The notes: a model not told the origin generated them from the letters alone. A stretch of 64,000 nt of DNA from an uncultured virus (IMG/VR IMGVR_UViG_3300004774_000001) (IMGVR_UViG_3300004774_000001), one strand, 5' to 3'; positions 1,976 through 62,324 are shown, numbered from the stretch's first letter. Numbers and translations: made by a program.

Positions 1976-2478
1976 TTACACCGATGGTAACTTCAGAAAT
2001 TATCGATGGTCGATTGAAGGTTCATATCGATCTGAAGACTGGTGGAAATCCCAACCATGACGAGCACGGGAGGTTTGCTGAAGGATCTGGCGGTGTGTCT
2101 GAAGGAGATGTGAACTCCAAAATGCGGGCATATGGAGGGATACAGTCTTATGTGGGCCCTAGGACATACCCAAAGCACGAAGGTGAAATCCCACAACGAC
2201 AAAAGGATGTTACCGAGGTCTTAAAGACACATGCGTTGATGAAATTCGTAACGGTGGAGAAATTGGTCAGCGAGTCAGGAAACAAGAAGAATCCAGAGGC
2301 ATTCTTGAAAGAACTACATGAATGGTTATGGCGTAGACCAAGTGCTTGGCAGGGAGAGATAGCAAATAAGCGATATGGTAAATATGCTGTGAGAATAAAC
2401 GAGAGGAATATAGGTCTTATCAGAGTAGTTCCTAAGCGGAAGAATGCTGGTGGAGTCTCCCTCGGTGTTGAGATATGA
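1972..2478 (+). CDS. NPNHDEHGRF-tagged protein with DGRLKVHIDLK leader, unknown cargo domain
   Basis: The ATG at 1972 overlaps the upstream stop and is a better start than 1927. Tag at 2047-2076. Confidence 0.7.
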   Translation: MITPMVTSEIIDGRLKVHIDLKTGGNPNHDEHGRFAEGSGGVSEGDVNSKMRAYGGIQSYVGPRTYPKHEGEIPQRQKDVTEVLKTHALMKFVTVEKLVSESGNKKNPEAFLKELHEWLWRRPSAWQGEIANKRYGKYAVRINERNIGLIRVVPKRKNAGGVSLGVEI

Positions 2479-2816
2479 AAATCACAACCACCGACATCTC
2501 TGATTTCCTTACTAATCTCAAAGACGCTCAGGTCTACAGGAGGGTGGTATACTTTGAGAGGTCGAAGCATCATCTCAACGGGAAGACGAAACACGATGCC
2601 ACGGCTTTTCAGATCATCTATCAGACCTCAGCGATCTTGGAATATGAAACTGATGGGCAGGCATTGCTAGTCTGTGGAGTTGATTGTGGGGTTGATAGGT
2701 TGAACGAGGATGGCGGAAGCGGCGGTTCAGATGTCCTGGAGGAACTCCACAAGCGATTGTGGGGATACTGTGAGTTGAACGGTTTGAGATTGTTACCCGG
2801 AATGTTGGATCAGTAA
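2475..2816 (+). CDS. Hypothetical protein
   Basis: 113 aa ORF with ATGA overlap. Confidence 0.65.
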   Translation: MKITTTDISDFLTNLKDAQVYRRVVYFERSKHHLNGKTKHDATAFQIIYQTSAILEYETDGQALLVCGVDCGVDRLNEDGGSGGSDVLEELHKRLWGYCELNGLRLLPGMLDQ

Positions 2817-2828
2817 AGGAGACCGAGG

Positions 2829-3188
2829 ATGACAGAGCACAAGACAGTTCATCAAGCACTATCCACTGTTCGGCATCGGCTGAAGGAAGCTGAGCAGTGT
2901 GGGAGTTTTCTGATCGGGATCTGGTGCTTGGGCAAAGATGGGAAGATGGTCTGCCATCGAACAACGTGGCAGTTTCCGAGTAGGGCCGTTGAGGACGTGA
3001 TCGGAACCCTGAAGGAGACTTTCGGGATCAAGGAAGAAGTCCTGGCCCCACTGCCGCTGGCGGAGTTTCTGAAGAAGTCCGATCCAATCGTATTCGATCA
3101 GGATGTTAAGTCGCCTATACTGGCTGGTGAGGTTCTTGGACCGTCCGAATACATCCCAGCGGAGGATATGCTAGATGCACGTCCTTAA
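2829..3188 (+). CDS. Hypothetical protein
   Basis: AAGGAG RBS upstream; 119 aa. Confidence 0.65.
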   Translation: MTEHKTVHQALSTVRHRLKEAEQCGSFLIGIWCLGKDGKMVCHRTTWQFPSRAVEDVIGTLKETFGIKEEVLAPLPLAEFLKKSDPIVFDQDVKSPILAGEVLGPSEYIPAEDMLDARP

Positions 3189-3540
3189 CTGGATCAAATC
3201 ATGGTTCGTCGCGGCATCCGTCGCTCGCCAGCTGTCCGGGTCTCAGAATCTGCTTATTGCTCTAGCCGCACGGGCACAGCAATCTTCGGAACGGCTAGAT
3301 GAACGAAGTAAAGAGCTATCTGCACTGGTGACGAGGATCGAAACCGACATTACCGATGCCAAGCGAATCCATCTGCGGTACGAATCGGCGTTGGACGAGG
3401 TGAGGGAGCAGAACCGTGTTTTGGAAACGACGATCCAGACGCTGGTTGCTTCGCATAAGCTGCTGATGGAAAGATATGACTGTGAGACTGCGTTGCAGGT
3501 TAGAACGAAAATCGCAGCATCCCAAGTAGGGCGGGAATAG
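3175..3540 (+). CDS. Hypothetical coiled-coil protein
   Basis: Heptad-rich 121 aa ORF. Confidence 0.6.
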   Translation: MHVLNWIKSWFVAASVARQLSGSQNLLIALAARAQQSSERLDERSKELSALVTRIETDITDAKRIHLRYESALDEVREQNRVLETTIQTLVASHKLLMERYDCETALQVRTKIAASQVGRE

Positions 3541-3652
3541 GGCTAAATCCCGATTGGCCGGCAGGACGGGTAATTATACGGGTTATGCCCTAGACCCCGT
3601 TAGAACGTAAGCCAGGCCCCTAGAAACAGGTGTCTATGGGGCGGACGGGTAG
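3541..3652. repeat. Non-coding element, inverted homolog of 37862-37973
   Basis: The reverse complement of 3545-3580 matches 37932-37967 at 31/36 nt, and further blocks also align. Confidence 0.75.
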
Positions 3653-3728
3653 GTGGTTTATAGGATGGTCCCATTCTATCAGTAGTTCGTATGTCGATAG
3701 GAAAATTCTCTAGAGGATCGGAAGTATC

Positions 3729-5477
3729 ATGTCAACTATGACGACAGCCCTCGCACGATCCGGCTCTGTGATCACGGCTGCCTATGAGACTGCCCTGTCA
3801 ATGAAAGCAGCGGGAATGCTTCCCGATATGGCCCCACAATCAGGACTTGCCCAGTTCGGAGCCTTCAGGGATGATGTCCAAAACAAGCAGCGGTATTCTT
3901 TATTCAGGGGCTGGCTTTATTCTGCCATCAACGCACTAGCAAGTGAGGCCGCTGGACAGCCGGTAGTCGTTGCATCTCTGAAGGGGAAGGTAAAGGCTCC
4001 GACAGGGAAGAAGTCCATCCGCAACAAAATGACAACGACGGCTAGGGTGAAGGCAGCCCAGCAGGACTTTGAGGTACTGGTTGATCATCCTCTTCTCGAC
4101 TTGCTCGAGACACCGAACCCGATTCAGAACAGATGGCAATTCGTCTATAGTTTCGTCGCCAACTTGAACCTCACCGGATGGTCATACATTATCGGCGGCG
4201 AGAATGAAGAGGGGGAGTACGAGTTCTACTCGCTGCCAACAACATGGATTAAGCCAGACCACAGGGATGGACCGTTTAGCCGATTCAAGGTAGTCGATCC
4301 AGCTAACCCGAAAGCTGGTGGGGATGAAGACGAATGGCTGACTAGGGAGAATGTGGCATTCGCTATGCTCCCGAATCCGGCTGATCCTCGCATGGCAATG
4401 GCCCCAGTCCAGTCACAGAATCCCGCCGTGCGGATTGACGACTTCATTCAGACGTCTCAGATGCAGTTCTTCGACAACGGTATCTTCCCGTCAGCGATAG
4501 TGACGATTGGTAAAGACCCACATCCTGATGTCCCAGGAGGAATTCGACCTCGGCTGACGGCAGCCCAGCGGAGGCAGGTCACTGGGGCGATCAGGAAGGT
4601 AATGGCCGGCGTCGCCAACTATGGCAACCCGGCGATTGTGGATGGCATGATTGAAAGCATCGAACGACTGACAATGACATCTAACGAGATGGGCTGGGAC
4701 AAGTCGGAAGACAAGAACCGCACCAGAATCCTATCTGCGTTTGGCGTTCATCCGTATATCCTCGGTGAGCCGGTAGGAGTGGGTGGGTATGCCCAGGTTG
4801 CAAATATTGAGAAGCGATTCTACAAGCGAGTGAACACGTTCCTCGATATGTTGGGGACTGTAGTCACCAACTTCGTTGGGTCAGCTGTTAGTGAGAATGC
4901 TGAAAACCTGTTTGTATGGTGGGAGGAGTGCCAAAGCGTTGATCCTCAGCTTCGGTGGTCGAACCTCAACGCCGCTCGGACTCGCGGGGACATCTCAAGA
5001 AATGAAATCCGCACTGAGTTGGGGCTGCCGCCGGATGAGACTGGTGGTGAGGCAACAAAGAACTACGCTGCGACTGATGTCACGGCAATCGTCGCAGTAC
5101 AGGCTGCCGTTGCCAGTGGTGGGATTTCACCCGAGCAGGCGGCCGCCCTCTATGTCTTAGCATTTGACATGGCACCGGAGGATGCAAAGAAGATCGCTGG
5201 GCCAAAGCCGAAGCCCCAACCAGTAGCCCCTGGAGGCGTTCCTGGAATTCCGGGTCAGCCTGGGAAGCCGGAAGGCAAGCCGGGGGCGTTCGGGAAACCG
5301 GCTGGTGGGGCTTCGGCCGATGAAGAGGAAGTCCCTCCGACTGAAGAAGAGGCTATGAGCAAAGCAACGAAGTCGTTAGAACTCGCAGTCGCGACGTTCG
5401 GACTTCAGACGTACAAAGGGTCGCTGCCTTCCTCGATTGTGGACCGGCTGCTAGAAGTCGTGGGTGAAGAATCATGA
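3729..5477 (+). CDS. Phage portal protein (HK97-like)
   Basis: HPLLDLLETPNPIQN, FFDNGIFP and ILSAFGVHPYILG motifs, NEIRTELGLPP, and a Pro/Gly-rich C-terminal tail. Confidence 0.92.
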   Translation: MSTMTTALARSGSVITAAYETALSMKAAGMLPDMAPQSGLAQFGAFRDDVQNKQRYSLFRGWLYSAINALASEAAGQPVVVASLKGKVKAPTGKKSIRNKMTTTARVKAAQQDFEVLVDHPLLDLLETPNPIQNRWQFVYSFVANLNLTGWSYIIGGENEEGEYEFYSLPTTWIKPDHRDGPFSRFKVVDPANPKAGGDEDEWLTRENVAFAMLPNPADPRMAMAPVQSQNPAVRIDDFIQTSQMQFFDNGIFPSAIVTIGKDPHPDVPGGIRPRLTAAQRRQVTGAIRKVMAGVANYGNPAIVDGMIESIERLTMTSNEMGWDKSEDKNRTRILSAFGVHPYILGEPVGVGGYAQVANIEKRFYKRVNTFLDMLGTVVTNFVGSAVSENAENLFVWWEECQSVDPQLRWSNLNAARTRGDISRNEIRTELGLPPDETGGEATKNYAATDVTAIVAVQAAVASGGISPEQAAALYVLAFDMAPEDAKKIAGPKPKPQPVAPGGVPGIPGQPGKPEGKPGAFGKPAGGASADEEEVPPTEEEAMSKATKSLELAVATFGLQTYKGSLPSSIVDRLLEVVGEES

Positions 5478-8400
5478 GCATAGCAGTTCTCGAAAAGACT
5501 GGCGGTGGAAATCCCAATCATGATGAGCATGGGAGGTTTGCTAGTGGTCGTGGACAGTCAATCCTGGATAAGCCGATAATTCACAGTTCGCAGGGGTTTG
5601 GAGAGGGTGTTGAGCCGACGCTTTGGCCGAGCGTGGATTTTGGTGCAGGTACATTTGGAGGACGGACTAGGCTAGGGCCGAACGCAGCCGATAGATATGG
5701 TCACATCGAGACTGTTCAACTATGTGACGTTTATGCTACTCAGGACGTGGTGCAACCATTCATCGTCGATCAATACGCACATGGAGAAAGACCGGTATAC
5801 GAACTGCCAAGACTTCTTAGATACAATGGGAAGTTACATGTAGATGATGGGCACCACCGACTAGAGGCTGCACGATTAAATGGGGAGACATCGATACGTG
5901 CTATCGTGGTTGATGTGGATAAGCATGGCCTGCCCTTAAAGTGGATAGATGAGAATCCAGAAAGTGCAAGAGAAGCCATTCAGATCCATGAGATGAGACA
6001 ACGGGAGAAATCCCCCTCCCGCCTCACCATCCTCCGCAAAGCCCTCGAAGTCACTCATCTAGCTCTCGACATCAAGCGCCAGCTGCTGTCGAAGGAACTG
6101 AAGAAAGCCGTCGTTCGCGGCGTCCATCTGAAGCAAGCAGAACAGGCCGAGAAGGAACTGACGGATGCTTTGGTCGGGTTGTTCAAAGAGCAGTTTAAGG
6201 CTGCGGCGAATCATATCAGCAAAGATGGTAAGACTGAGTTTAACCCCCGCGACTGGGACGATGCCCTAGTCGATACCTGCATGCCGGTGCTGATGAAGCA
6301 TGCCGGGCTGGCTGCCGCTGCTCAGATGATGTTGATGGGTGTCGATGTCAGCAGGCGGAAGAGGAAGATGGAGAAGTCTGGCGGAGGAAATCCCAACCAT
6401 GATGAGCATGGGGGGTTCGCTAGTGGGGCTTACACTGCGACTGAAGGAAAGGATCGCTCTGGAAAACCAGATCGCGATGATGTTCTGAATATAGTAGCGG
6501 ATGTTCGGGATAGGTGGGGCTACCAAGGTGGGGTATCTTTGGTCGACGGTCAGGGTGGGGAGTTTGAGCGTGGTGGGCTGAAATGGAGAACAGCTGGGCA
6601 GTGTCAGATTGCAGGGAGTGTTACGCAGATTGCAGGGAGTGTTACGATTTGGAGGGATACTGATTGGAGCTCGGTGGAATCGGTAGTGAGTTTAACAGCT
6701 CACGAAATGATGCATGGTACGTACCAAAAGATACAAGATAAGTATGACGGAGAGCAAAAACAGCTGACCGGGGATCATATCAGAATGAATGGTCAGTTGA
6801 AAGAGGAATACAGAGATCAGTTTCCTGTCTATGCTAGAATGTGGGAGCTGTATCAGGGGTCGAGGAATCCCAAAGTTGGGGACGATCAGTGGTTTCAAAA
6901 AGATGACGGGGTGAGTGAATATAGCAAAGCGTACTGGAGGGATTATGAGGCTGGTAAGTGTTCGCTTTCTACGGCTATTCACGAAACACTGGCTGAGATC
7001 GCGGGTGAACACGAATCAACTGGGGTGCTGGTCGGGAGTAGGCGGTATAGGGATTTCTACAAAGCCGTTAGGGATGAATACAGGGTCGAGATTGGTCAGT
7101 CGAGATTCAGAAGAGGGCCGGGGGTTCCAAAAAAGAGCGTTTCTGGACACACTGAAATCATCCCACACGAATTGTATTTTGACGCTGATTTTCGCCCGAC
7201 CAATCCAGAGAATGCTAGGTATGTTCGCTATTGGAACTCTGATGGAACAACTGGGATAGGAGTTCGCTCTGAGGAGCAGAAATCCCCCTCCCACCTCACC
7301 ATCCGAACCAAAACCACCGCCACCGATTTCCTTCAGAATCTGGAAGACTACGATGTCATCGACCTCTCCGGCATGGTCTTCACTCTTCCATCCGGTCTAG
7401 AAATCACTCTCGGCTTCATGACCGAGTGGCCGGAATGGATGAAGGTCGAAATCGTCGATCAGATCAAAGTGGCGTTCAGCCAGGGCTACTGGGTAGGAAT
7501 CAACGACACGACCGCGAACGGGATTGAATCCTACGTCCAGAAGGGACTGGAGAACGGGGATTCGATTGCCGACATCCGAGCGGCGATGGTGGGGGACGGG
7601 CTTGACGAATACTACTTCGGGCGAGGAAAGAACATTGCTAGAACAGAGGCAGGAAACGTCTTGAACGGTGCTCGATCCTCAGCGATGAATCGATTGCAGG
7701 AGGAGATCCCTGGACTGCAGGCAAAGAAGACATGGCTGAGTGTGCTGGGGACAACGACGAGGGACACGCATGCTCACTTGGATGGTGTGCCGGCAGATGA
7801 AGAGGGGATGTGGGTACTGGCTGGGATTCAGATACCGTGGCCAGGGCACTTTAGTCTACCGCCGGGCGAGCGTTGTTCGTGTCAATGCTCAATCGTTCAT
7901 TCTTGGGGCATGGGTGATTCGACGGCCGAGGGGCTGATCGCAGATTATAACGAAAGACTGCAACAGGAGAAATCTAATCCCAATCATGACCCAAGATCCG
8001 GGCGATTTTCCTCTGGCTCTGGGGGATCTCAGCAGCAGAAGCCAGCTAGCACAGCCCATACCGAAACCGTTCATGAGATCTCGAGCAAGATTAAGAAATC
8101 GAGTGACAACTTGGAAGGCGGGGCTAACGTAACGAAGATCCTTGAGATAGAAGCGGGCGGGATAACAAAGAAGGCCATTTTCAAACCCATTGATGGTGAG
8201 AACCCACATGTCAACCCAGCATTTCTCGGCCGGCAGAGTATTTGTGAAGTGGCATCTTCCATCGTTAGTGAGGAGATGGGGCTCGACCTCGTAGCAAAGA
8301 CGGCGATGGTGACCGTAAGCGGGAAGCGAGGATCACTGGCGAGCTGGGTGAACGATACGGCTACTTTGGCCGTTGACCTAATTGAAGAGCGATTCGCCGC

Positions 8401-9808
8401 TAACAGCGAAGAAAAGATGTGGATGAAGTTGAGTAGTGATGGTGTTAAGGGCGTCAACGATATGGTGTTCTTTGACGTCCTGACAGGTAACGCCGACCGT
8501 CATCTGGGGAATTGGTTGGTCAAGAATGGTGAAGTTAAGCCGATTGACAATGGGATGTCGTTTGCGCGGAACGATGAGTATATGGCAGGGGGGTTGCGGT
8601 TCCGCACTTTGGAGTCGGCACCGAAATCGATGGCCTATCAGTCGATGTCCCCAGCATTCAAAGCCGGGCTGGGGAATCTGTTAGAGAATAGGGACAAGGT
8701 GGATGCTAGGTTGGAGAACGCCGGGCTGGATCACAGGACGAGGGATTCATTCTGGAAGAGAGCAGTTTACTTGTCCAAGACGAGGATGCTGGGGATCAAT
8801 GGTAGGACTCTCCACGATGTTGCTCGGTTATCTGAGGGTTTAGATCTTTTCGCTTCGGTCGGTGACATCCAGACGAAGATGGTTGATGGGGTGTTGCAGA
8901 TTGAGATCGATCTAAAGACTGGTGGTGGGAATCCCAACCACGACGAGCATGGGCGGTTTGCCAGTAGGGTACTAACGCAGAACGAGATTAAAGCCATATC
9001 TGAATGGAGAGAACACCTGTGGAATCGTGGAATCGTAACTAAACTAGCACAAGAAACGATCAGGGGCGGATCGTTAGCGAAGTACCATCCAGGTGAAATG
9101 ATGGTGTACCGTGGTGGGAATATGCTAAGAACTGGCTCTTCGTGGTCAAAATCTAGGGAAGTGGCAGAAGAATATGCGGATGGTGGAAGAATCGAGGAAT
9201 TACATCTCACTTTGGACACGCCCGCGCTGGATATCAATAGGGTTCTATCCGCGATACCGTCAAAGAGTGAACGTGATGAGGAGGTATTCATCCCTCCACC
9301 GAGACGGAAATCTAACCCCAACCACGATGAACACGGGAGGTTCGCTAGCGGGAATGGAAGTTCCGGATCTCGTGTTTTTTATCGTGGGACAACAGAAGCC
9401 GCGGTTAGGGCGATCCTCAGAGACGGAATGCATCCTGGAAAGGGTGGCGGTGCAGAGGAGGATTGGGAAACTGGAATTGAGGATGGCTATGGGGGAGAGG
9501 ACGAGATAATCTCGGCGGGAAGACGTGCTTCAGTATATTTTACTTCTGACATTGAGATTGCCGACAGATATGCGAAACGAGCGAGCGAGCTTCGCGGGAG
9601 AAAGCCGGTTATCCTTGAAATTCATATTCCTACCGATGCTTCATCGCCCATTAAGCCGGATGGATCGCAGTATGCGTCGTATCGAGTAGAGCAGTCGATT
9701 CCAGCGGCTTGGATCAAGCGGTATGATAAATCCAAGGTAAAAGCTGATAACACTGGATCGCTATGGTATGCTGTTGTCCATGTCCCTATTAGGAGTCAGG
9801 ATAGATGA
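5474..9808 (+). CDS. MuF (SPP1 gp7-like) minor head polyprotein carrying five tagged effector modules
   Basis: MuF core IARTE...KTWLS...TRDTH...RCSCQC (~7600-7900). Other domains: ParB-like DDGHHR, zincin HEMMH, kinase-like DRHLGN/IDNG, and two ART-like domains (YRG...SSWS...E; FYRGT...VYFT). Five NPNHD tags. Confidence 0.85.
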   Translation: MSIAVLEKTGGGNPNHDEHGRFASGRGQSILDKPIIHSSQGFGEGVEPTLWPSVDFGAGTFGGRTRLGPNAADRYGHIETVQLCDVYATQDVVQPFIVDQYAHGERPVYELPRLLRYNGKLHVDDGHHRLEAARLNGETSIRAIVVDVDKHGLPLKWIDENPESAREAIQIHEMRQREKSPSRLTILRKALEVTHLALDIKRQLLSKELKKAVVRGVHLKQAEQAEKELTDALVGLFKEQFKAAANHISKDGKTEFNPRDWDDALVDTCMPVLMKHAGLAAAAQMMLMGVDVSRRKRKMEKSGGGNPNHDEHGGFASGAYTATEGKDRSGKPDRDDVLNIVADVRDRWGYQGGVSLVDGQGGEFERGGLKWRTAGQCQIAGSVTQIAGSVTIWRDTDWSSVESVVSLTAHEMMHGTYQKIQDKYDGEQKQLTGDHIRMNGQLKEEYRDQFPVYARMWELYQGSRNPKVGDDQWFQKDDGVSEYSKAYWRDYEAGKCSLSTAIHETLAEIAGEHESTGVLVGSRRYRDFYKAVRDEYRVEIGQSRFRRGPGVPKKSVSGHTEIIPHELYFDADFRPTNPENARYVRYWNSDGTTGIGVRSEEQKSPSHLTIRTKTTATDFLQNLEDYDVIDLSGMVFTLPSGLEITLGFMTEWPEWMKVEIVDQIKVAFSQGYWVGINDTTANGIESYVQKGLENGDSIADIRAAMVGDGLDEYYFGRGKNIARTEAGNVLNGARSSAMNRLQEEIPGLQAKKTWLSVLGTTTRDTHAHLDGVPADEEGMWVLAGIQIPWPGHFSLPPGERCSCQCSIVHSWGMGDSTAEGLIADYNERLQQEKSNPNHDPRSGRFSSGSGGSQQQKPASTAHTETVHEISSKIKKSSDNLEGGANVTKILEIEAGGITKKAIFKPIDGENPHVNPAFLGRQSICEVASSIVSEEMGLDLVAKTAMVTVSGKRGSLASWVNDTATLAVDLIEERFAANSEEKMWMKLSSDGVKGVNDMVFFDVLTGNADRHLGNWLVKNGEVKPIDNGMSFARNDEYMAGGLRFRTLESAPKSMAYQSMSPAFKAGLGNLLENRDKVDARLENAGLDHRTRDSFWKRAVYLSKTRMLGINGRTLHDVARLSEGLDLFASVGDIQTKMVDGVLQIEIDLKTGGGNPNHDEHGRFASRVLTQNEIKAISEWREHLWNRGIVTKLAQETIRGGSLAKYHPGEMMVYRGGNMLRTGSSWSKSREVAEEYADGGRIEELHLTLDTPALDINRVLSAIPSKSERDEEVFIPPPRRKSNPNHDEHGRFASGNGSSGSRVFYRGTTEAAVRAILRDGMHPGKGGGAEEDWETGIEDGYGGEDEIISAGRRASVYFTSDIEIADRYAKRASELRGRKPVILEIHIPTDASSPIKPDGSQYASYRVEQSIPAAWIKRYDKSKVKADNTGSLWYAVVHVPIRSQDR

Positions 9809-10995
9809 TATACTCTGTAACTACGTCCGCTAAAGTCGTTGACGGTCGATTGAAGGTTCATATCGACTTGAAGCGAAATGATGAACACATCGCGGCGGGG
9901 AATCCGCGGGGTGGTCAGTTTGCATCGAAGCGAGACTCCGTTGCCATCGGGACTCCGGTCGGTGCCGTTCGGGAGGGCAAAGGCAAAGAGGCTAAGATCG
10001 TACTCGCCAATGGTTCCCCAGCCCCGGCCCATATCCAAGCTGCTATGATCCCACCGGCCTGGAAGGATGTGAAGGTCTATACCGACCCGAAATCGGAAGT
10101 CTGGGTCGAGGCAACCAATGTGACGAAGCGGGGCGTGGTCAACTCAGTAAAGGTTTATTCTCCATCGTATGCCGCTTCTCAACAGGAAGCAAAGCACGTC
10201 CGTGTTGAGCAGATGTTGAAGGAGGCGCCTAATATCGACAAGCAGATCCAGCAGGGGAGAAAGAATCCGAAGACCAAAGAGGAAGCGGATTGTGCCCTGC
10301 TAATTTCAAAGCAGGCGACACGGCCGGGTAGCGATACTGACACTAAGGGACTTGAGAAGCACTATGGAGTGAAGGTGACACCGGACAATGTGATTGTGTC
10401 ATCTGGTGCCAAAGGAAAGACTAAAGTTGAACTCGAAGTCAACGGCGAACGGATTCACATCCGTGATGAGGGTGCGGCAGCTCAGCTGATTGCCAGAAAG
10501 CAATCCGGCGAGGGACTCCACGATTCGACTTATTGGTTGAAGTCGCACGGGGCTACGACTCTAGAAGGCAGGAACGTGGTCCAAGGAAAGGACGGTGTGC
10601 GGCTTCAGTTTATGGGCAAGGAGGGTGTCTGGCACGATCATCTAATCAAAGATCCAGAAGTCGCCAAGATGCTGACAGACAGAGCGAAGACTGCCAAAGA
10701 GAGGGATGGCCGCCTGTTTGATACTGATAACACCAAGCTGGCCTCCTACGTGAAGACTTTAGATACGGGGCGATTCTCTCCGAAAGACTTCCGCACGAAG
10801 GTCGCTAACGAGATCGCAGCGAGGGAGCTGCAGTCATATGCTGGCAAGACGCCAAAAGATGCGAAGCAGCGGGAGGAATGGATAAAGACTATCGCGACAA
10901 CCGTGTCGAGGACTCTAGGGAATAAGCCAGCCCAGTGCGTCGAGAGCTACATCAACCCCCACGTATGGGATATTTGGCCGTCAGCGGCCGCATGA
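9805..10995 (+). CDS. DNA topoisomerase IB (bacterial/poxvirus-like) with DGRLKVHIDLK leader
   Basis: IPPAWKDV, RPG, F-x-GKEG, KDFRT and LGN...SYI match the type IB catalytic motifs. Confidence 0.85.
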   Translation: MIYSVTTSAKVVDGRLKVHIDLKRNDEHIAAGNPRGGQFASKRDSVAIGTPVGAVREGKGKEAKIVLANGSPAPAHIQAAMIPPAWKDVKVYTDPKSEVWVEATNVTKRGVVNSVKVYSPSYAASQQEAKHVRVEQMLKEAPNIDKQIQQGRKNPKTKEEADCALLISKQATRPGSDTDTKGLEKHYGVKVTPDNVIVSSGAKGKTKVELEVNGERIHIRDEGAAAQLIARKQSGEGLHDSTYWLKSHGATTLEGRNVVQGKDGVRLQFMGKEGVWHDHLIKDPEVAKMLTDRAKTAKERDGRLFDTDNTKLASYVKTLDTGRFSPKDFRTKVANEIAARELQSYAGKTPKDAKQREEWIKTIATTVSRTLGNKPAQCVESYINPHVWDIWPSAAA

Positions 10996-12052: not shown

Positions 12053-12310
12053 ATGCAACCGTTTGGAATCGGAGGAAAGGCAAAGCCGAAACTGGCTGAC
12101 GTGCAGTGCTCACGGATGCAGTTCCAGCCAGGGGATAGAATCCTAGTCCGCGTCTATCGGGCGCTGTCCGAGGAAGAGGAGAAGAAACTTCGGAAGAGCG
12201 TTGAGCGGTGGTCTGGTGGCATCACTGAAGTGCTCGTGATCAACGGATTGGATACGGATGTGACGGTAGAGAAGGGAGTGTCTGATGGATCAAAAATCCT
12301 CCTGCCCTGA
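12053..12310 (+). CDS. Hypothetical protein
   Basis: AAGGAG RBS; 85 aa. Confidence 0.6.
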   Translation: MQPFGIGGKAKPKLADVQCSRMQFQPGDRILVRVYRALSEEEEKKLRKSVERWSGGITEVLVINGLDTDVTVEKGVSDGSKILLP

Positions 12311-12539
12311 AGAGGGATATCGAAAGGCCCTCAAAGACGACCCATCACTCGTGGCGTTCCTCTCTGCCCTCAAAGAATTCGACCGTGCCTTTTGTGACGC
12401 GATGGCCAGTGGAACTGACTTCACCCTGAAGTTGGAAGTTCATGGGAATAGGTCTGAATTGATTCATGCCCGTGTTCAAAATGATAGCTTCCGGCGACCT
12501 GCCGGGGTCGAGAAGAGGGTTGAAAAAGCAGGAGGTTAA
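12285..12539 (+). CDS. Hypothetical protein
   Basis: 84 aa ORF overlapping the previous gene. Confidence 0.55.
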   Translation: MDQKSSCPEEGYRKALKDDPSLVAFLSALKEFDRAFCDAMASGTDFTLKLEVHGNRSELIHARVQNDSFRRPAGVEKRVEKAGG

Positions 12540-12615
12540 AATTCCCCGAAAATTCTGTATAGGAAATCCTACTGGATTCCCGTATTATACAGACACACGA
12601 GACGTCTAGGCGTGA

Positions 12616-12662
12616 GGGCCGCGGCGAGGTAACACCTTCCATTTCCGCGGCCTTTGTTTTTT
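12616..12662 (+). terminator. Terminator-like hairpin
   Basis: GGCCGCGG...CCGCGGCC followed by TTTGTTTTTT. Confidence 0.5.
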
Positions 12663-12672
12663 GGGGAATGAC

Positions 12673-13239: not shown

Positions 13240-13590
13240 ATGGCGGAGAGAAGGAAGCTTGATACCCACCCGCAACTGGCGGGTGGGACATCCAGGTACA
13301 AAGTTCAGAGTCGGGCATTGGATGACAATGGGTTCAATTCCGTTGTCCGTCTGATCAAAACCGGCCGGCTTGCCCAGATTGACCAGATCAAGGAAGCCGT
13401 GTTCACTAACATGAAGCGGTTGCGTCTCCATACCAAGGGATTCAATGCCATCGTTGGTATCCCGGAAGGCAGCGATCAGATCGACATCGGAACGATCATC
13501 TCCTGGGCCGGTGGAGTCGGACGGAAGGATGAGCCGGCAAAAGAGCAGCTTGTTCTTCTCGCCGTTACCATCAACGCAAGGCTGGTCTAG
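13240..13590 (+). CDS. Hypothetical protein
   Basis: AAGGAG RBS; 116 aa. Confidence 0.6.
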   Translation: MAERRKLDTHPQLAGGTSRYKVQSRALDDNGFNSVVRLIKTGRLAQIDQIKEAVFTNMKRLRLHTKGFNAIVGIPEGSDQIDIGTIISWAGGVGRKDEPAKEQLVLLAVTINARLV

Positions 13591-13624
13591 TCTACCAACG
13601 TACTGTGATGCAAGGAAGAAAGAA

Positions 13625-15091
13625 ATGAGCCAAAAACTGCTCGAAGCCATTCAAGAACGCCAGCAGAAGCACACTGAGTTCGGGTATGGCATTCTGACTG
13701 CTGATCGGTACGTCCGCAACGTCCTCGATGCCATCGGTGTTGATAAGTGCTATCGATATGCTGCCACGAGGTCTGTCTCGTGGAATGACGTGATGGAGAA
13801 AGCTGCTCACACGTTGGTCTATTCCAATCCAGACATGATCACTGAAGAGATCAGCTACAGTAAACGTGCGGGCAGTTCTTTGAAAGAATATGACGACATC
13901 GAGCTACCGAAGAACACCCTGATGGTATTCAAGCACGTCTTGACCACGCCCCGAAAGGATCGGGATGGTGACGTGTTGCGGACGCAAGGCGCCTCGGTCG
14001 ACCCGAAGATGCTCTTGCTTTGGCAGCACGTCCATACGATGCCGATCGGCAAGATGCTCACCATCGCCGAGCATAACAGCAAGAAGTTGACGCTGGTCTC
14101 CTGCATCGTGGACATGAATGACTTGAGTCATGACGCTGCGGTGATGATCGACAACGACATGGGTCGGTTTAGCCATGGCTTCCGGGCGATCGAGTTCAAC
14201 AAGATCAAGGCAGAGGGCGGACACGAGGGCGGGTTTGATGTGACTGCTTTTGAAATTATGGAAGCCTCTTTGGTTTCGGTTCCGTCGAATACCGATGCCG
14301 ATGTTGAAGAAGTGATCCTGTCTTTGGTTGAAGGCAGGAAGCTGACTAGCCCGATCATGAAAGAAGTTGGCCGGTCGATCCGTGAGAAGCAACCGACGCG
14401 AATCACGTTACCTGTGGATCTGAAGATCACCCTGAACGGTAAGGAGATCTCCAATGAGGAGCTCAGCGGAAGTGGAAGCGATGCGACAAAGGGAGCAGGA
14501 GAAGAACAAGACGGCACCCGCACATCAGAAAAAGCCGATGCAAAAGCAGGAGACGGAAAAGCAGAGGAAGCAGCCACCGACACGGAAATGAAGTGCCCGA
14601 AGTGCGGAGCGATGATGCCGAAGAGTTCGAAGAAGTGTCCCAAGTGCGGACACGTGATGACGGCGGAGGATTTGAATCCGGAGAAGAGCTTCGACGGTGA
14701 GAAATCCGGTCGAGCTTTGAGCTGCAAGAACTTGGACCGTCTGAAAGAAATCCACGGGGACATGAAAGAGCTTCACACCGGCAGTCATATCATGAGCCCA
14801 CGGGGACGGGACCTGTGTGAGAAGTGCGTCAAGGGAATGGGGTCGATGATTGAGGAACATGACAGGCCAGATCGACCGGAAGAGGAAGAAGAGAACGCCG
14901 AGGGTGAAGGTGGGATGTTCAGTCGAGGGAAGCGCTCGATGGAAGATGCAATCGGTCAAGTCATTTCCAACGCAACGCCCCAGCAACGGGATACGATCCG
15001 GAAAACGTTCGATGCGTTGGACAAGGTCGAGGGGCAGAACAAACTGGCAGAAGAATTCCGAACTCTTGTGAGTTCAGATCATAAAGGGTGA
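13625..15091 (+). CDS. Prohead protease (HK97-type) with C-terminal Zn-ribbon/scaffold extension
   Basis: DRDGD, LLWQH, PIGK, FSHGF and EASLVSVPSN motifs; CPKCG twice. ATG at 13625 follows AAGGAAG. Confidence 0.88.
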   Translation: MSQKLLEAIQERQQKHTEFGYGILTADRYVRNVLDAIGVDKCYRYAATRSVSWNDVMEKAAHTLVYSNPDMITEEISYSKRAGSSLKEYDDIELPKNTLMVFKHVLTTPRKDRDGDVLRTQGASVDPKMLLLWQHVHTMPIGKMLTIAEHNSKKLTLVSCIVDMNDLSHDAAVMIDNDMGRFSHGFRAIEFNKIKAEGGHEGGFDVTAFEIMEASLVSVPSNTDADVEEVILSLVEGRKLTSPIMKEVGRSIREKQPTRITLPVDLKITLNGKEISNEELSGSGSDATKGAGEEQDGTRTSEKADAKAGDGKAEEAATDTEMKCPKCGAMMPKSSKKCPKCGHVMTAEDLNPEKSFDGEKSGRALSCKNLDRLKEIHGDMKELHTGSHIMSPRGRDLCEKCVKGMGSMIEEHDRPDRPEEEEENAEGEGGMFSRGKRSMEDAIGQVISNATPQQRDTIRKTFDALDKVEGQNKLAEEFRTLVSSDHKG

Positions 15092-15152
15092 AGTCGCCGG
15101 CGGTCGTCGATGATCCCTGTGTTTCATGGGTTTCAGAAGTGAGGTTACGAAC

Positions 15153-16799
15153 GTGAAGATTACGAAAGGTCTGAAGACGTGGATCAAGGCGAACTGCGAT
15201 GTTGAAGACATCGCGGATGAAGCTGAGTTCCAGAAAGCCGCCGGCGTTGCTCTCGGTACGGGCAAGCTCTCGGTGGAGAAGTTCGCAGAATTGGCTAAGG
15301 ACGAGGATGCCGACAACGCGTCTGAGTTCAACAAGCAGCTGTCTGCTCTTGGTAAAGGCATCGCCGACCTGACCAAGATGCTGAGTGCGAAGCCGGCCGA
15401 AGATAAGCCGGAAGAGACCAAGAAGGTCGAAGTCGAGGCGAAGGAGAAGCCGGAAGCGACGGACAAAAAGACTGACGTCACCTGGCACAAGTCGATCAAG
15501 CGGATGATGAACTTGGAACCGCCGACCGACGAGGAGGGGAACATTCGGGTCAAGGGTGCGTGGGAGCAGTACTCCACGACCAAGACTGCCATGCGGTTCC
15601 CGAACCAAACCAAGAGCGGCCGTCCCCATCCATTCGCTGGGAAGCAGGTCGTTGATTTTTCCGATAGTGGACGTCCGCTCGATGAACCGTCCGATCTGGA
15701 CAAAGCGGTCGCCGGCTCGTTCGCCAAGTTGCTGTGCGCCACGGCCCAGCGTGGCGGAAGCCGGACGTTTGGTTTCCAGGCCCTGCCGCAGCACGACAAG
15801 GAAATCCTCCATTATGCGATGGAGAAGATGCCGTGGGGTGGTGTGTCCTCAATCACCAACACTGACGCGGACAACTATGCCGACATCAAGAATCGCCTGC
15901 TGACTCCTCGGGAGCAGAAGGCGTTGATTGACGATGCGACTTCTGGTGGCCTGGAAGCGGCCCCGATCGTGTTCGACGACCAAGTGATCCAGACGCCCTT
16001 CCTCAACGGCGAGCTGTTCCCGCTGGTCAATTCGGTTCCGCTCGACCGCGGTCGCCGGATTGAAGCCGTCGCCGTTGGTCACGTGACGTCGAGCTGGGGT
16101 GGAGTTGATGATTCCGCCATCACCTTGTTCACGACGACCTCCTTCGTGACCGCCTTCGACACTACGATCTTCCGATGGCAGGGTGCGATCAAGATCGGCC
16201 TGGACTTCCTCAGTGACACGCCGATTGACTTCGGTCAGATCGTGACCCAGCAGTACGGCGAGAAGCTGCTGGAAGACCTCGACGACGTGGTCGCGACCGG
16301 CAACGGAACGACGCAGCCGGAGGGTGTGATGAATAAGACCGGTACTACGACGGTTGCATGGGGTGGAACCACCTCGATCGGCAACTACGAATCCCTGCGG
16401 TTCGGAGTCGCCAAGAAGGAACACAAGGCGGCCGGACTCGGTACTGCTGTGTTCTGCGGGACGGAAACCTCCTTTCAGCGGATGAAGGCCATCCCAGTCG
16501 GAACCGGGGACGCTCGCCGCCTGTTCGGTGGTGGCTTCATGGGAACGTCGAACTATGATGACTACACCATGATGCAGCGGCCGTACAAGATCAACGAGAG
16601 TCTCACCAACTCACAGGTCTTCTACGCGATCCTCAACAAGTACCGGATGTACCGCCGCCGTGGTCTGACGATGCGGACCTCACAGGAAGGTGACACGCTG
16701 ATTCGTGCCAATGAGTTACTCATGATTGCGATGGCGCGTTACGGTGGACACCTCGAGCGTGGTGCTGTAGCCGCGAAGACGACCACTGCCCCCGCCTGA
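15153..16799 (+). CDS. Major capsid protein (HK97 fold) with N-terminal delta/scaffold domain
   Basis: Follows the protease. Charged N-terminal scaffold, QK/ALIDD...GG candidate maturation site, and GNGTTQPEGV. GTG start after GAGG. Confidence 0.88.
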   Translation: MKITKGLKTWIKANCDVEDIADEAEFQKAAGVALGTGKLSVEKFAELAKDEDADNASEFNKQLSALGKGIADLTKMLSAKPAEDKPEETKKVEVEAKEKPEATDKKTDVTWHKSIKRMMNLEPPTDEEGNIRVKGAWEQYSTTKTAMRFPNQTKSGRPHPFAGKQVVDFSDSGRPLDEPSDLDKAVAGSFAKLLCATAQRGGSRTFGFQALPQHDKEILHYAMEKMPWGGVSSITNTDADNYADIKNRLLTPREQKALIDDATSGGLEAAPIVFDDQVIQTPFLNGELFPLVNSVPLDRGRRIEAVAVGHVTSSWGGVDDSAITLFTTTSFVTAFDTTIFRWQGAIKIGLDFLSDTPIDFGQIVTQQYGEKLLEDLDDVVATGNGTTQPEGVMNKTGTTTVAWGGTTSIGNYESLRFGVAKKEHKAAGLGTAVFCGTETSFQRMKAIPVGTGDARRLFGGGFMGTSNYDDYTMMQRPYKINESLTNSQVFYAILNKYRMYRRRGLTMRTSQEGDTLIRANELLMIAMARYGGHLERGAVAAKTTTAPA

Positions 16800-17505: not shown

Positions 17506-17952
17506 ATGTCTGCGGCAACTGATGCAGCGTATGCTAGGAGATCAGGACGGTCAGCTGCCGCAGCGTTGGAAGTACAGTGGTTCGTTCAAGACTTCCACAA
17601 CCGAATGGACGTATCACTGAGGCAGAGAGTTCAAGTGGCAGTTGTGTTTCTGCAAGACGCGATAGTGAAGAACATCAGTGTTCCGGTTGTGAAGAAGATC
17701 GTCAACGGAAGAACAATCGTCACGAAGAGAAGCAAACCAGGTGAATTTCCCAGAGCGGACACCACACAGCTGATGAAGACGATCTTCAACGACGTGGTTG
17801 ATTATGGGAACGGAGTGATTCATGGATACGTGGGGACGCCACTCGGGTATGGGCTTGAGTTAGAGACGTTGAAACAGCGCCAGTTCCTGACTAGGACGTT
17901 GAATGAGGAGATAGGAAACATCACTGGGTTGCTTACAGGACCGATAGTATGA
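17506..17952 (+). CDS. HK97 gp10-like neck/tail component
   Basis: SKPGEFPRADT, VGTPLGYGLELE and R-x-FL motifs. Confidence 0.7.
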   Translation: MSAATDAAYARRSGRSAAAALEVQWFVQDFHNRMDVSLRQRVQVAVVFLQDAIVKNISVPVVKKIVNGRTIVTKRSKPGEFPRADTTQLMKTIFNDVVDYGNGVIHGYVGTPLGYGLELETLKQRQFLTRTLNEEIGNITGLLTGPIV

Positions 17953-18500
17953 CTCCCATCGAACGCAAAGCTGCCGAGGTTCAACTAGGGGTGCTGAAAC
18001 TTCAGCACCTCATGTTGAGCCAGAAGTTCAACGAGAACCACGACGAACACGGGCGATTTGCCAGTGGGGATAGTCAGAGCGGTTCTGGTGGGAGCTCTGG
18101 TGGAGAGACATCGTCTGCGATGACAGTGGCTGAAGCCCATAAGAAGATGGGCAATGCTATGGGTGGTAAGACCGGTGGTGACTACAAAGTCGGGGATGTG
18201 ATTGGTCATCCTCGATATCGTGGCTTTGTCATCACCGATAAGAACAGCCAAGGCTACAAAGCATATCATCCGAGCAACGGCCCGCAGGCGACGACGAGTA
18301 TCAAGAATGGTTGGGTGGCTGATAGGACGGGTGGCAAGACCGGCGGTGACTACAAAGTTGGGGATCAGATCAGTCACTCCAGATACCGTGGTTTTATCAT
18401 CACAGATAAGAATAGTCAGGGGTACACGGCGTACCATCCGAGCAACGGCCCGCAGGCGACGACGCACATCAAGAATAGTTGGGTGGCTGAGGGGCGGTAG
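17949..18500 (+). CDS. NENHDEHGRF-tagged protein with a duplicated 56-aa domain
   Basis: Tag at 18030-18059; tandem 168-bp repeat starting at 18162 and 18330. Confidence 0.75.
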   Translation: MTPIERKAAEVQLGVLKLQHLMLSQKFNENHDEHGRFASGDSQSGSGGSSGGETSSAMTVAEAHKKMGNAMGGKTGGDYKVGDVIGHPRYRGFVITDKNSQGYKAYHPSNGPQATTSIKNGWVADRTGGKTGGDYKVGDQISHSRYRGFIITDKNSQGYTAYHPSNGPQATTHIKNSWVAEGR

Positions 18501-41892: not shown

Positions 41893-41966
41893 CGGAATGT
41901 AGGATAGCCTGGTAATCCGCCTGCTTTGGGAGCAGGAGACCGCTGGTTCGAATCCAGCCATTCCGA
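41893..41966 (+). tRNA. tRNA-Pro (TGG)
   Basis: Acceptor CGGAATG/CATTCCG; anticodon arm CCTGC-TTTGGGA-GCAGG; T arm GCTGG-TTCGAAT-CCAGC. Confidence 0.92.
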
Positions 41967-44928: not shown

Positions 44929-44955
44929 ATTCTGAGAATTTCCTCCGGACCGGCC

Positions 44956-44988
44956 AATAACGAGCCGGCCCGGACGAATAACTAGTAG
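44956..44988 (+). promoter_or_regulatory. Early promoter-like motif, copy 3
   Basis: AATAACGAGCCGGCCCGGACGAATAACTAGTAG. Confidence 0.65.
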
Positions 44989-45024
44989 GGAACAAGACTG
45001 CGAACTGGATCAAGGAGACTTGTG

Positions 45025-58903: not shown

Positions 58904-58916
58904 AAGGATACTAAAG

Positions 58917-59108
58917 ATGTTGGTATTGTCACGGAAGATGGGGCAGAAGATCGTCATCGGCGAGAATATCACGGTCACCGTGGTGAAGCTGAAAGGTAAC
59001 TCGGTGCGCTTGGGATTCGAGGCTCCAGAAGACGTCCAGGTGCTCCGACAGGAAGTTCGGAATGCAAAGCAGGACGATGGCAATTCCAGAAAATTACCTG
59101 AAATCTGA
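58917..59108 (+). CDS. csrA: Carbon storage regulator CsrA homolog
   Basis: MLVLSRKMGQKIVIG...VRLGFEAPEDVQVLRQEV. Confidence 0.92.
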   Translation: MLVLSRKMGQKIVIGENITVTVVKLKGNSVRLGFEAPEDVQVLRQEVRNAKQDDGNSRKLPEI

Positions 59109-60139: not shown

Positions 60140-60202
60140 TTTCGAGTTGGTGGTCAAAGTAGCCGGGGACAGTCCCCGGCTGCTTGTGTTGAGGGAGACG
60201 CA

Positions 60203-60676
60203 ATGATCAGTATCACACGCAAACTTGAATTCGACGCAGGTCATCGGGTATTGAAGCACGAATCGAAGTGCAAACATCTTCACGGCCACCGCTACGTCGC
60301 CGAGGTGACAGTTACTGCGCCAGAACTTGATCAGCTTGGCCGCGTGATTGACTTCGGGGTTATCAAAACTGAGGTCGGGGGATGGATCGACCAAAACTGG
60401 GACCACAACCTCATTCTTCATCCTGCCGACCCGCTGCTGCATGTGCTGACTGTTTTGCGGCAAGACGGTGAGCAGATTCTTGAGGGTGCAAATGGTCAGG
60501 TCGATGCCGTGTTGGGTGGGAAAGAGCCGTTTGTGCTGGACGGCAATCCGACCGCCGAGAACATGGCCCGGGTGCTGTTTCAAGTAGCGAGTGAATTGTT
60601 GCGTTCGTACGATATTGATGTGGTACGAGTTCGATTATTCGAAACCCCCAATTGCAGCGCTGACTACGTGAAGTGA
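60203..60676 (+). CDS. queD: 6-carboxytetrahydropterin synthase
   Basis: FDAGHR, C.HLHGH, NPTAEN and ETPN motifs. Confidence 0.92.
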   Translation: MISITRKLEFDAGHRVLKHESKCKHLHGHRYVAEVTVTAPELDQLGRVIDFGVIKTEVGGWIDQNWDHNLILHPADPLLHVLTVLRQDGEQILEGANGQVDAVLGGKEPFVLDGNPTAENMARVLFQVASELLRSYDIDVVRVRLFETPNCSADYVK

Positions 60677-60685
60677 GACCGAATC

Positions 60686-60913
60686 ATGGAGATCGAAAAT
60701 GTCCCTGTTGTCCGGTGTCCCCAGGCAGGGGAATCTTTCAGAAGGGAGCTGATTCAGGCTCTGCGTGCGATGGAATGTGGTCAGTCTGTCGTGGTTGATA
60801 AAGCCGATTCAAATCTTCGGACACTAGTTTGGGTCGTGAGTCAGTGCCTGGACAGACGTTATCTTATCCGGAAGCAGGCAGAGAAGCAGTGGAGAATCGG
60901 ACGGATCGACTAA
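60686..60913 (+). CDS. Hypothetical small DNA-binding-like protein
   Basis: 75 aa ORF coupled to queE. Confidence 0.5.
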   Translation: MEIENVPVVRCPQAGESFRRELIQALRAMECGQSVVVDKADSNLRTLVWVVSQCLDRRYLIRKQAEKQWRIGRID

Positions 60914-61575
60914 TGCTGAATAAACAACCACCCGAACACCGAGATCATAGCAGCCCCGATTCTCTTGAGATCGTAGACGTATGGAAGACGATCCAGGGCG
61001 AGGGGCCGTTTGCCGGTAGACCAGCAACTTTTATCCGATTGGCTGGTTGCAACTTTCAGTGTCCTGCTTGTGATACGAACTACACTACTGGTCGTCGGTT
61101 TGAGTTGGTGGAGGATCTGCTTGAACTGACGGGTGGCGCTGATCTGGTTGTGTTGACGGGCGGAGAGCCGCTCCGCCAGGACATCACTCGGCTAGTGGAT
61201 CTGCTGATTGATCGTGGCACGCAAGTTCAGATTGAAACCAACGGCATTCTTCATCTTCCAGGGCTTCATTCTCGGGCTGTGGTTGTTTGCTCACCCAAGA
61301 CGCCAGGCATCGCGCGGGAGCGGTGGCCCTATGCCTTCAAGTACGTACTCCAGGCGGGTCAAGTTGATACGGACGGCCTGCCGCTGACGGCTTTGGGTGG
61401 GATGCGACCAGCTCGTCCTCCCGAGGACTTCCCTCGATCCGAGATCTATCTGCAGCCTCTGGATGAGCAGGATCCGGAAGCAAACAAACGGAATGTTGAC
61501 GCGACGGTTCAGAGCTGCATGCAGTATGGCTATCGTCTCTGTCTCCAAATGCAGAAAATCGTGGGGCTGAAATGA
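60913..61575 (+). CDS. queE: 7-carboxy-7-deazaguanine synthase (radical SAM)
   Basis: TIQGEG, FIRLAGCNFQCPACDT, TGGEP, ETNG and SPK motifs. Confidence 0.92.
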   Translation: MLNKQPPEHRDHSSPDSLEIVDVWKTIQGEGPFAGRPATFIRLAGCNFQCPACDTNYTTGRRFELVEDLLELTGGADLVVLTGGEPLRQDITRLVDLLIDRGTQVQIETNGILHLPGLHSRAVVVCSPKTPGIARERWPYAFKYVLQAGQVDTDGLPLTALGGMRPARPPEDFPRSEIYLQPLDEQDPEANKRNVDATVQSCMQYGYRLCLQMQKIVGLK

Positions 61576-62324
61576 GTGAAACAGACGCAACTGTGAAGTC
61601 TGAAATCGTTGACGGTCGATTGAAGGTTCATATCGACATCAAAGAGAACCCGAACCACGATCAACGCGGGCGGTTTGCCAGTGGGGGAGGATCTGGTGGG
61701 TCCTCGGCGAGGGTGTCTGTCAAGGTGTCGGTCGATCCAGAGACACTGGGGAGACTGAAGCGCAAGGCTGACAAGGAAGAGATACAGCAGACTGCGGTGG
61801 AGGTTGAGAAGTCACTCGCTGGTGTTGCAGAGCGTTGCCAGAAGTTGACTGACCAGCTGCCAAAGTCTGAGATGGGTATTCGGTTGAAGGGGACACCGTT
61901 CTGGATCTCGAAGAATGGGCAGGGAGCGACGACTGGACAGTATGATAAAGAGACCGGCACGGCTGAGGTCGCCGGCTTCGGGCATCCCGCAACATCGGAC
62001 CATTTGAAGGGCGGGCAGTTCTCGTTGAGTGATGCAGTCTCAGATATTGCCACCCATGAGTTCGGCCACCATCTTCTTGAGCAAATGCTCGCCGCCAACG
62101 GAGGGAAGGGTGTCGGGGAGCCTGGCCGTCTGGTCAATATCTGGAAGGTGACCCCGAAGAGTGAGCTCCGCAAGTTGAGTCAGTACGCGGCGGACCATCC
62201 AGCTGAGATGTTCTGCGAGGGACTGCTCGCCTACACGCATCCTAGTTATGGTACTAAGAACGGTGCCAAGATGCCGAAGGCGCTGGCGAAATACTTCGAC
62301 GATGTAATCGGGAAAGGAAAATAA
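61572..62324 (+). CDS. NPNHDQRGRF-tagged zincin metallopeptidase with DGRLKVHIDIK leader
   Basis: HEFGH plus LSQYA...EMFCE; tag at 61647-61676. Confidence 0.75.
   Translation: MSETDATVKSEIVDGRLKVHIDIKENPNHDQRGRFASGGGSGGSSARVSVKVSVDPETLGRLKRKADKEEIQQTAVEVEKSLAGVAERCQKLTDQLPKSEMGIRLKGTPFWISKNGQGATTGQYDKETGTAEVAGFGHPATSDHLKGGQFSLSDAVSDIATHEFGHHLLEQMLAANGGKGVGEPGRLVNIWKVTPKSELRKLSQYAADHPAEMFCEGLLAYTHPSYGTKNGAKMPKALAKYFDDVIGKGK

Follow-up and report, generated by a model that had tools for sequence, protein, structure and literature searches.

A shared N-terminal leader on unrelated genes of an uncultured phage is a candidate signal for loading cargo into the capsid

Why do dispersed genes of one phage, encoding unrelated proteins, open with the same short peptide? 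We examined this question in a 64,000-nt stretch of DNA from an uncultured virus (IMG/VR IMGVR_UViG_3300004774_000001; this whole stretch is called the window below), in which three genes, here named g1972, g9805 and g61572, begin with a leader built around DGRLKVHIDLK and continue into a conserved header tag of the pattern NPxHDxxGRF, and in which a fourth, diverged leader lies inside the gene of a MuF polyvalent protein. Alignment, together with comparison of the attached proteins, leads us to regard the leader as a genuine N-terminal module that is portable between unrelated cargo proteins. What the module does is less certain, and we put about an even chance on its being a lineage-specific capsid-loading propeptide, similar in kind to the capsid-targeting sequence (CTS) found in phage T4 and serving cargo that has lost its fusion to a head protein. 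The leader-bearing genes and their parts are as follows.

1972..2037, + strand: leader of g1972, MITPMVTSEIIDGRLKVHIDLK; its start overlaps the upstream stop (ATGA)
2047..2079, + strand: header tag of g1972, NPNHDEHGRFA
1972..2478, + strand: g1972, a 168-aa cargo protein without a known family
9805..9873, + strand: leader of g9805, MIYSVTTSAKVVDGRLKVHIDLK; ATGA overlap with the MuF stop codon
9877..9927, + strand: degenerate tag of g9805, NDEHIAAGNPRGGQFAS
9805..10995, + strand: g9805, 396 aa, type IB topoisomerase-like cargo
61572..61643, + strand: leader of g61572, MSETDATVKSEIVDGRLKVHIDIK; ATGA overlap with a QueE-like gene
61647..61679, + strand: header tag of g61572, NPNHDQRGRFA
61572..62324, + strand: g61572, 250 aa, a zincin-like metallopeptidase (HEFGHH)

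Each leader spans 22-24 residues and consists of the initiator methionine, 8-12 variable residues and an amphipathic hairpin stretch of the pattern [ST]x[EK][IV][IV]-DG-RLKVHIDLK, directly before the header tag. Eight leaders were aligned: those of g1972, g9805 and g61572, the copy within MuF, two from relatives of the phage (L071 5120-5680 and L078 3558-5129) and two from metagenomic proteins (P0059 and P0091). All eight are alignable from the initiator methionine, seven of them open a protein, and the spacing from the start methionine to the hairpin is constant at 8-12 residues; in the three window genes the copy accordingly sits 8-12 codons past a start codon that overlaps the preceding stop. 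AlphaFold2, run on the eight-row alignment, predicts a beta-hairpin with strands at residues 6-13 and 16-23 and the Asp-Gly (DG) turn between them, with a predicted local distance difference test score (pLDDT) of 92 over residues 11-20, a mean of 69.5 and low confidence in the tag region; the beta-hairpin proposed by an earlier sequence-only reading of this DNA is thereby borne out as a prediction. The window copies end in I-D-L/I-K, and the lysine stands directly before the tag in all four (three canonical NPNHD..GRF tags and one degenerate tag, RNDEHIAAGNPRGGQFAS, in g9805).

The proteins behind the leaders are different. The g9805 product matches Pfam Topoisom_I (E 1.3e-11) and PDB 2f4q (E 2e-6), the g61572 product has M90/ATLF-like neighbours in the ESM Atlas, and the g1972 cargo retrieved nothing from the ESM Atlas. 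In the pairs tested by BLASTP the cargo parts share no similarity, bar a weak match over HExGHH (E 0.058), so that alignment and BLASTP together uphold the claim that the leader is portable across cargo genes. Whereas g9805 directly adjoins the MuF gene, g1972 and g61572 are dispersed, the latter lying between QueE-like and GTP-cyclohydrolase genes. That neighbourhood is a 7-deazaguanine DNA-modification cluster (60203-64000, + strand) of QueD-like, QueE-like, GTP cyclohydrolase and DpdA/TGT-like genes, with no QueC seen within the window.

Relatives of the topoisomerase cargo provide the link to the phage head. We collected 18 loci with relatives of this type IB topoisomerase (TopIB), 17 of them outside the window's own phage, and found that they match the g9805 product from residue 26-58 on, past the leader, and that their open frame extends upstream. 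Pfam scans of five of these extended frames (L014, L008, L023, L010 and L011) revealed a lambda-type portal (Phage_portal_2) and Topoisom_I in one frame in L014, ART-PolyVal and TopIB in one frame in L008, a Peptidase_Mx-like part, scoring 24.4 bits where the curated cut-off is 27, with TopIB in L023, and TopIB alone in L010 and L011; the TopIB parts of L014, L008 and L023 are 44-54% identical to that of the window. The fusion junctions carry tag-like linkers, for example KSNxPFDExxHPRxxxGKFG and KHLPGQHNQMSHG, the latter a third kind of tag, found in L008. These comparisons indicate that TopIB is a recurrent head-delivered module, and because cargo is tied covalently to head proteins elsewhere, the leader-bearing genes of the window appear to be the unfused form.

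This arrangement recalls the polyvalent effectors fused to MuF or portal proteins, described in PMC5512222 and PMC5576092. As there, MuF, ParB, zincin and ART domains lie in or beside head genes; the repertoire met here comprises MuF, ParB-like, kinase-like, TopIB and zincin peptidase parts, with ART-PolyVal beside TopIB in L008, so that TopIB and the kinase-like domain are additions here. The window differs from the published effectors in that three of its modules are free-standing with their own leader, one of them far from the head genes. Term searches of the accessible text found no mention of a linker or GRF motif in Iyer et al. 2017 (PMC5512222) and none of a linker, conserved motif or cleavage in Jamet et al. 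2017 (PMC5576092), and a literature search for the motif strings returned no relevant paper.

We favour the capsid-loading reading because the cargo is fused to head proteins in relatives, because the leader is N-terminal, and because it parallels both the T4 CTS and the end of the HK97 scaffold. On this proposal the hairpin would replace the covalent link between cargo and head protein: through it the cargo would dock inside the procapsid during assembly, in the manner of the T4 CTS, and the HK97-type (S78) prohead protease might then cut the leader off behind its lysine. In T4, according to PMC9026906, the CTS is a short N-terminal propeptide of the internal proteins IPI-III and Alt. Like the leader, it is one short N-terminal peptide common to unrelated proteins of a single phage, is portable between cargo that consists of enzymes delivered with the DNA, and ends at a likely prohead-protease site, which for the leader is a predicted one. 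The T4 protease gp21 cleaves at the motif L/I-x-E. The leader ends I-D-L/I-K instead, lacks that motif and has no sequence likeness to the CTS, and whereas the CTS is a 10-residue peptide, the leader is predicted to form a two-strand beta-hairpin of ~18 residues and is joined to a separate conserved tag. T4 also builds on a gp21/gp22 core, whereas this phage has an S78 protease and a capsid protein that includes a scaffold part of its own at the N-terminus, and the loading and trimming of leader proteins are proposed by analogy with T4, from sequence.

The second parallel is HK97 gp5. According to PMC10275583 it is cleaved at K103/S104, past a DG turn and a strand which, in the procapsid, docks on the P-domain sheet; in the gp5 sequence of NC_002167 the S78 protease cuts directly behind ..SWDGKQGTFGAKTFNK, with S on the other side. 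The leader shares the order of DG turn, short beta-strand and lysine, a likeness of pattern only, as a leader hidden Markov model (HMM) finds no match in the capsid or protease segments of the window.

The history of the leader is written in a short DNA core. The window is part of a phage genome with every gene on the + strand, and a 94,972-bp metagenome contig, circularly permuted with respect to the window, equals it at each 40-mer sampled, which gives a genome size of about 95 kb for this uncultured phage. Exact matches to the 26-nt pattern GAYGGTCGATTGAAGGTTCATATCGA lie on the + strand at 2005-2030, 9841-9866 and 61611-61636; a search of both strands at up to 3 mismatches returned those three matches only, and 100 shuffles gave none. 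The leader pattern is therefore shared at the DNA level by dispersed genes, as the sequence-only reading had stated, and the 30-nt identity it had noted between 9838 and 61608 is contained in a longer run of 32 nt. The IMG/VR contigs L002-L007, which share the 26-nt pattern, show 100% identity with the window and so represent the same phage and no independent evidence. The shared DNA segments are these.

2008..2030, + strand: 23-nt core GGTCGATTGAAGGTTCATATCGA, copy 1
9844-9866, + strand: 23-nt core, copy 2, inside the 32-nt stretch 9836..9867
61614..61636, + strand: 23-nt core, copy 3
9836..9867, + strand: 32-nt stretch identical to 61606-61637

The longest exact runs are 23 nt between g1972 and g9805, 23 nt between g1972 and g61572, and 32 nt between g9805 and g61572. 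Seven core codons (GGT CGA TTG AAG GTT CAT ATC) are the same in all three leader pairs, an agreement with P ~2.5e-7 for three independent copies under the genome's codon usage. Flanking codons for the same residue match in 1/4, 4/16 and 3/4 cases across the three pairs, and the header tags of the window vary freely at synonymous sites; the saturation of flanks and tags argues against recent copying of whole modules. We conclude from these patterns that the leader modules are old and that identity is kept over the short core alone, most likely by short-patch gene conversion from one paralogous leader to another. The earlier suggestion that a leader module was recently copied onto new genes thus survives in the synonymous identity of the seven core codons, and it fails for the module as a whole, since identity is confined to 23-32 nt between diverged flanks and tags. 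The leaders of L071 and L078 have the same peptide in other codons, so that it is the peptide, not the DNA, that is conserved.

The fourth copy reveals movement in the opposite direction, from free to fused.

3729..5477, + strand: portal protein (Pfam Phage_portal)
5474..9808, + strand: MuF polyvalent protein, 1444 aa
8852..8917, + strand: internal diverged leader ASVGDIQTKMVDGVLQIEIDLK, within the MuF gene
8852..9808, + strand: former separate leader gene, in-frame on MuF, with leader, tag, 111-aa unknown module, tag and 150-aa C-terminal module

The MuF protein contains, in order, a ParB-like part, a HEMMH motif, MuF, a PI3/4-kinase-like domain and the fused leader gene, with five header tags starting at window positions 5510, 6389, 7976, 8930 and 9314. 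The diverged copy that had been reported inside MuF at about 8882 was recovered there, its core VDGVLQIEIDLK occupying 8882-8917, or residues 1137-1148 of the protein. Three of three homologues of the kinase-like domain (P0262, P0080 and the L071 open reading frame (ORF) 1701-2768) terminate at ..EGxxLF; their ends align to ..EGLDLF of the window, at residue 1126, one residue before the internal leader begins, and right behind LF a match to the leader-only HMM begins, at model position 2. Because all three homologues end ahead of it, the leader is not a leftover of the upstream domain, and we conclude that a once-separate leader gene has been fused onto MuF and that the internal copy is the derived state. 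A tblastn search of cultured phages with the whole MuF protein matched the MuF domains alone.

The header tag behind the leader is a separate and far wider feature. A leader-plus-tag profile run against 1.84 billion representative proteins matched 135 proteins at E <=1e-3, nearly all through the tag alone, and many of these are giant proteins with 3-15 matched stretches. Leaving out the window's own proteins, we counted 397 NPxHDxxGRF tags in 133 proteins (61 N-terminal, 333 internal and 3 C-terminal), with a median spacing of 240 residues between consecutive tags. In the window, eight canonical tags and one degenerate tag likewise stand ahead of modules, and we conclude from this placement that the tag is a header ahead of each module. 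Its consensus over the 397 tags is a hydrophobic residue at -4, any residue, K at -2, F/Y/A at -1 and N-P-x-H-D-x-x-G-R-F. The K at -2 is present in 58% of the 61 N-terminal tags and in 47% of the 336 others, and since it is general in tags it belongs to the tag and not to the leader alone; the earlier observation that a lysine always precedes the tag is true of the four window copies and loses its specificity for the leader.

The tag also exists in more than one form. A second type, GDLPGHPFRGNQW, is present in P0262 where P0080 and the window carry NPxHDxxGRF, and again behind the L071 leader, and the NPxHDxxGRF and LPGHPFRGNQW types look interchangeable on this comparison. At 6340-6421 of the window, and in P0262 and P0080, GDLPGHPFRGNQW or KFNPxHDxxGRF occupies the same site after ..AAAAQMLLMG.. 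of homologous MuF proteins. One further window gene opens with a tag behind a peptide of another kind.

17949..18500, + strand: 183-aa protein with a different 26-residue N-terminal peptide and the tag NENHDEHGRFA at 18030

Its tag is followed by a Gly/Ser linker and two tandem repeats of ~55 aa (GGKTGGDYKVGD...), and its leader and tag are also conserved in L073 and L121.

The hairpin leader is, by comparison with the tag, rare. Outside the window phage it was found in the relatives L071 (MKADVKSWIQDGRLQVQVDLK) and L078 (MATISTSLVGDRLKVRIDLT), whose capsid proteins are 69-70% identical to that of the window, and in the metagenomic proteins P0059 and P0091; in these four sources it heads ParB-like and other proteins. 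The L071 and L078 leader genes lie at different places among conserved small head-module genes (homologues of window 12053-13236), and at the site of the L071 leader gene the window has just a 121-bp gap (12540-12660); given the differing insertion sites in L071, L078 and the window, leader genes appear to behave like mobile cassettes. Exact and back-translated leader patterns in IMG/VR returned the window phage, L071, one spurious 70-aa frame and no more. Degenerate DNA patterns matched 20 stretches in 241 million metagenome records, three of them the leader in the window's own genome and the other 17 without tags (nine in proteins of ~1,050 aa with ..WADGRLKVHVEVT.., two more in different long frames and another six in frames <31 aa). 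In genomes of 185,579 species they again matched 20 stretches, each either an internal hairpin in a cellular protein or a tiny frame, and none with a tag. We rejected these tagless matches as leaders, as the peptide resembles a generic hairpin. A leader-only HMM found none besides L071 and L078 in 9,304 ORFs from the relatives' loci, a word-indexed search with residues 1-45 of P0003 yielded one of 11 candidates, P0003 itself, and the 43-aa module had no tblastn match in cultured phages; P0059 and P0091 were not found in IMG/VR, nor P0095 in genomes. The search for the leader in related phages therefore has a divided outcome, with L071 and L078 on one side and, on the other, those 9,304 ORFs together with two complete relatives discussed below.

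Whether the leader is cut off depends on the head genes that would process it.

13445..15091, + strand: prohead protease, S78 (HK97) type, with a long C-terminal extension; PVDLK at residues 323-327
15126..16799, + strand: HK97-family major capsid protein with an N-terminal part of ~265 residues; YADIK at 251-255 and REQK at 262-265

The protease scores 20.6 bits against Peptidase_S78, where the curated cut-off is 21. The pattern [AVILM]D[LI]K occurs seven times in the window, in the four leaders and once each in MuF, the protease (just past the catalytic domain) and the capsid protein (near the scaffold/shell boundary). MuF, protease and capsid together hold 12.9% of residues, and three of three matches would fall in them by chance with a frequency of ~0.2%, a post hoc figure. 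At the capsid boundary, K265 (REQK/A) is kept in 111/120 homologues. Cleavage after the leader lysine is plausible by analogy, and mimicry of a cleavage or docking strand is suggested by pattern alone (DG ... [AI]D[IL]K). An AlphaFold2 model of the capsid protein (mean pLDDT 49.7) failed in the HK97-fold part and was too poor to place a cleavage site. Its residues 10-60 and 140-240 reach pLDDT 75-89, and the model suggests that the N-terminal part is a folded scaffold domain, not a plain coiled coil; a phmmer search with the capsid protein found no match among PDB sequences. By eye, protease homologues often have a VPVxLDLKVTVNGQEV hairpin at the place of PVDLK, where the window has a PVDLKITLNGK hairpin, and the protease homologue of L146 has the tag GHPFRGNQY at the same place, in the linker after the catalytic domain.

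Several results weigh against capsid loading by the leader. The leader is missing from two complete relatives, G005 (84.9 kb) and G006 (93.2 kb), and its absence from these and from the other relatives' ORFs means that its role is dispensable for the family. Only two of the 397 tags, those of P0059 and P0091, stand behind a hairpin, so that the tag has no need of one. The residue that follows D/E-L/I in the eight leaders is K in six, T in one (L078) and N in one (P0091). The translational coupling of g61572 is to DNA-modification genes and not to head genes. On the side of cleavage, the total of seven [AVILM]D[LI]K matches lies within the shuffle range (mean 2.6, maximum 8), the leader HMM does not match the capsid and protease segments of the window, and capsid K255 (YADIK) is kept in only 59/120 homologues, a frequency that led us to reject YADIK as a cut site mirrored by IDLK.

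Among the alternatives, one that we regard as unlikely and yet worth serious attention assigns the signal, be it an address, a cut site or an ejection handle, to the header tag alone and takes the hairpin for a near-neutral, lineage-specific extension that spread with the tag by duplication. It accounts well for the 59 of 61 N-terminal tags that are preceded by short varied peptides or almost nothing, and for a leader that is missing from complete relatives and rare in every collection scanned. A near-neutral extension sits less easily with a peptide pattern kept in five independent sources with different codons, at a constant 8-12 residues from the start methionine, and before two tag types as well as two poor tags (g9805 and L078). 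We consider it rather doubtful, too, that tag and hairpin form a two-part loading code of HK97-type phages with MuF or portal polyvalent cargo, in which a universal header tag with interchangeable variants (NPxHDxxGRF, LPGHPFRGNQW) would be combined with the lineage's own hairpin; the hairpin would imitate the turn-strand-lysine end of the capsid scaffold, bind to the inside of the capsid and be a substrate of the same S78 protease, and 23-nt gene conversion would supply homology for grafting the module onto new genes. Were this so, any gene could become virion cargo by gaining ~40 codons.

Frozen synonymous sites might also mean that the 23-nt core is itself a nucleotide element, either an mRNA hairpin or the target of a dimeric or RNA-binding regulator, for instance the CsrA of this phage, with the peptide secondary. 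The 7/7 identity of core codons against the diverged flanks fits this idea, as do an imperfect palindrome in the core (GTCGAT-N11-ATCGAC, a hairpin with an AGGU loop) and a CsrA gene at 58917-59105 (+ strand; Pfam CsrA E 1.6e-23). Binding sites of CsrA present GGA in the loop, which AGGU lacks; moreover the folding z-scores of the core are ordinary (-0.58, -1.27 and -0.76), none of the three Rfam matches in the window at E <=1 is at a core site, no further core copies exist on either strand, and the L071 and L078 leaders keep the peptide and not the DNA, so we judge a nucleotide element improbable. Equally small is the probability we give to a latency or folding propeptide that would keep potentially self-damaging enzymes (topoisomerase, peptidase, ParB-type nuclease) from folding or acting in the producing cell before the head processes them. 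The cargo enzymes do act on DNA or protein, and the leader opens the protein and has a plausible cut site at its end, but a 16-residue hairpin with a flexible Gly-rich tag is an unlikely inhibitor of several unrelated folds. There was no sign of the hairpin packing on cargo; the ESM Atlas model of P0003 gave whole-protein scores only. An origin of the leader from the tail of a preceding domain, left in place as a polyvalent protein broke up into separate genes, is suggested by the copy directly behind the kinase-like domain of MuF; this origin becomes highly improbable once that copy is read as derived and fused, the domain stopping before the leader in 3/3 homologues, and once it is considered that 7/8 leaders begin a protein.

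Should the capsid-loading reading be right, the leader with its tag would join the T4 CTS as another, different kind of capsid-targeting signal, applicable to a very large group of HK97-like phages with MuF- or portal-linked effectors. It would show cargo switching between fused and free states, with TopIB fused to the portal in relatives and free in this phage, and a leader gene fused onto MuF here, and it would offer a small handle for predicting phage proteins injected with the DNA. The cargo types (topoisomerase, peptidase and ParB-like) suggest early host takeover or counter-defence. The kind of system is already known; what is new is the hairpin ahead of the tag, its fusion and unfusion, and the 23-nt frozen core.

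Other features of the window complete the picture. The CsrA homologue is a possible post-transcriptional regulator and, to our knowledge, an unusual cargo for a phage. A tRNA gene is located at 41893-41966 (+ strand; Rfam tRNA, 68.1 bits), and at 44098-45651 (+ strand) PHROG matches identify an amidoligase-like gene that adjoins a glutamine amidotransferase-like gene.

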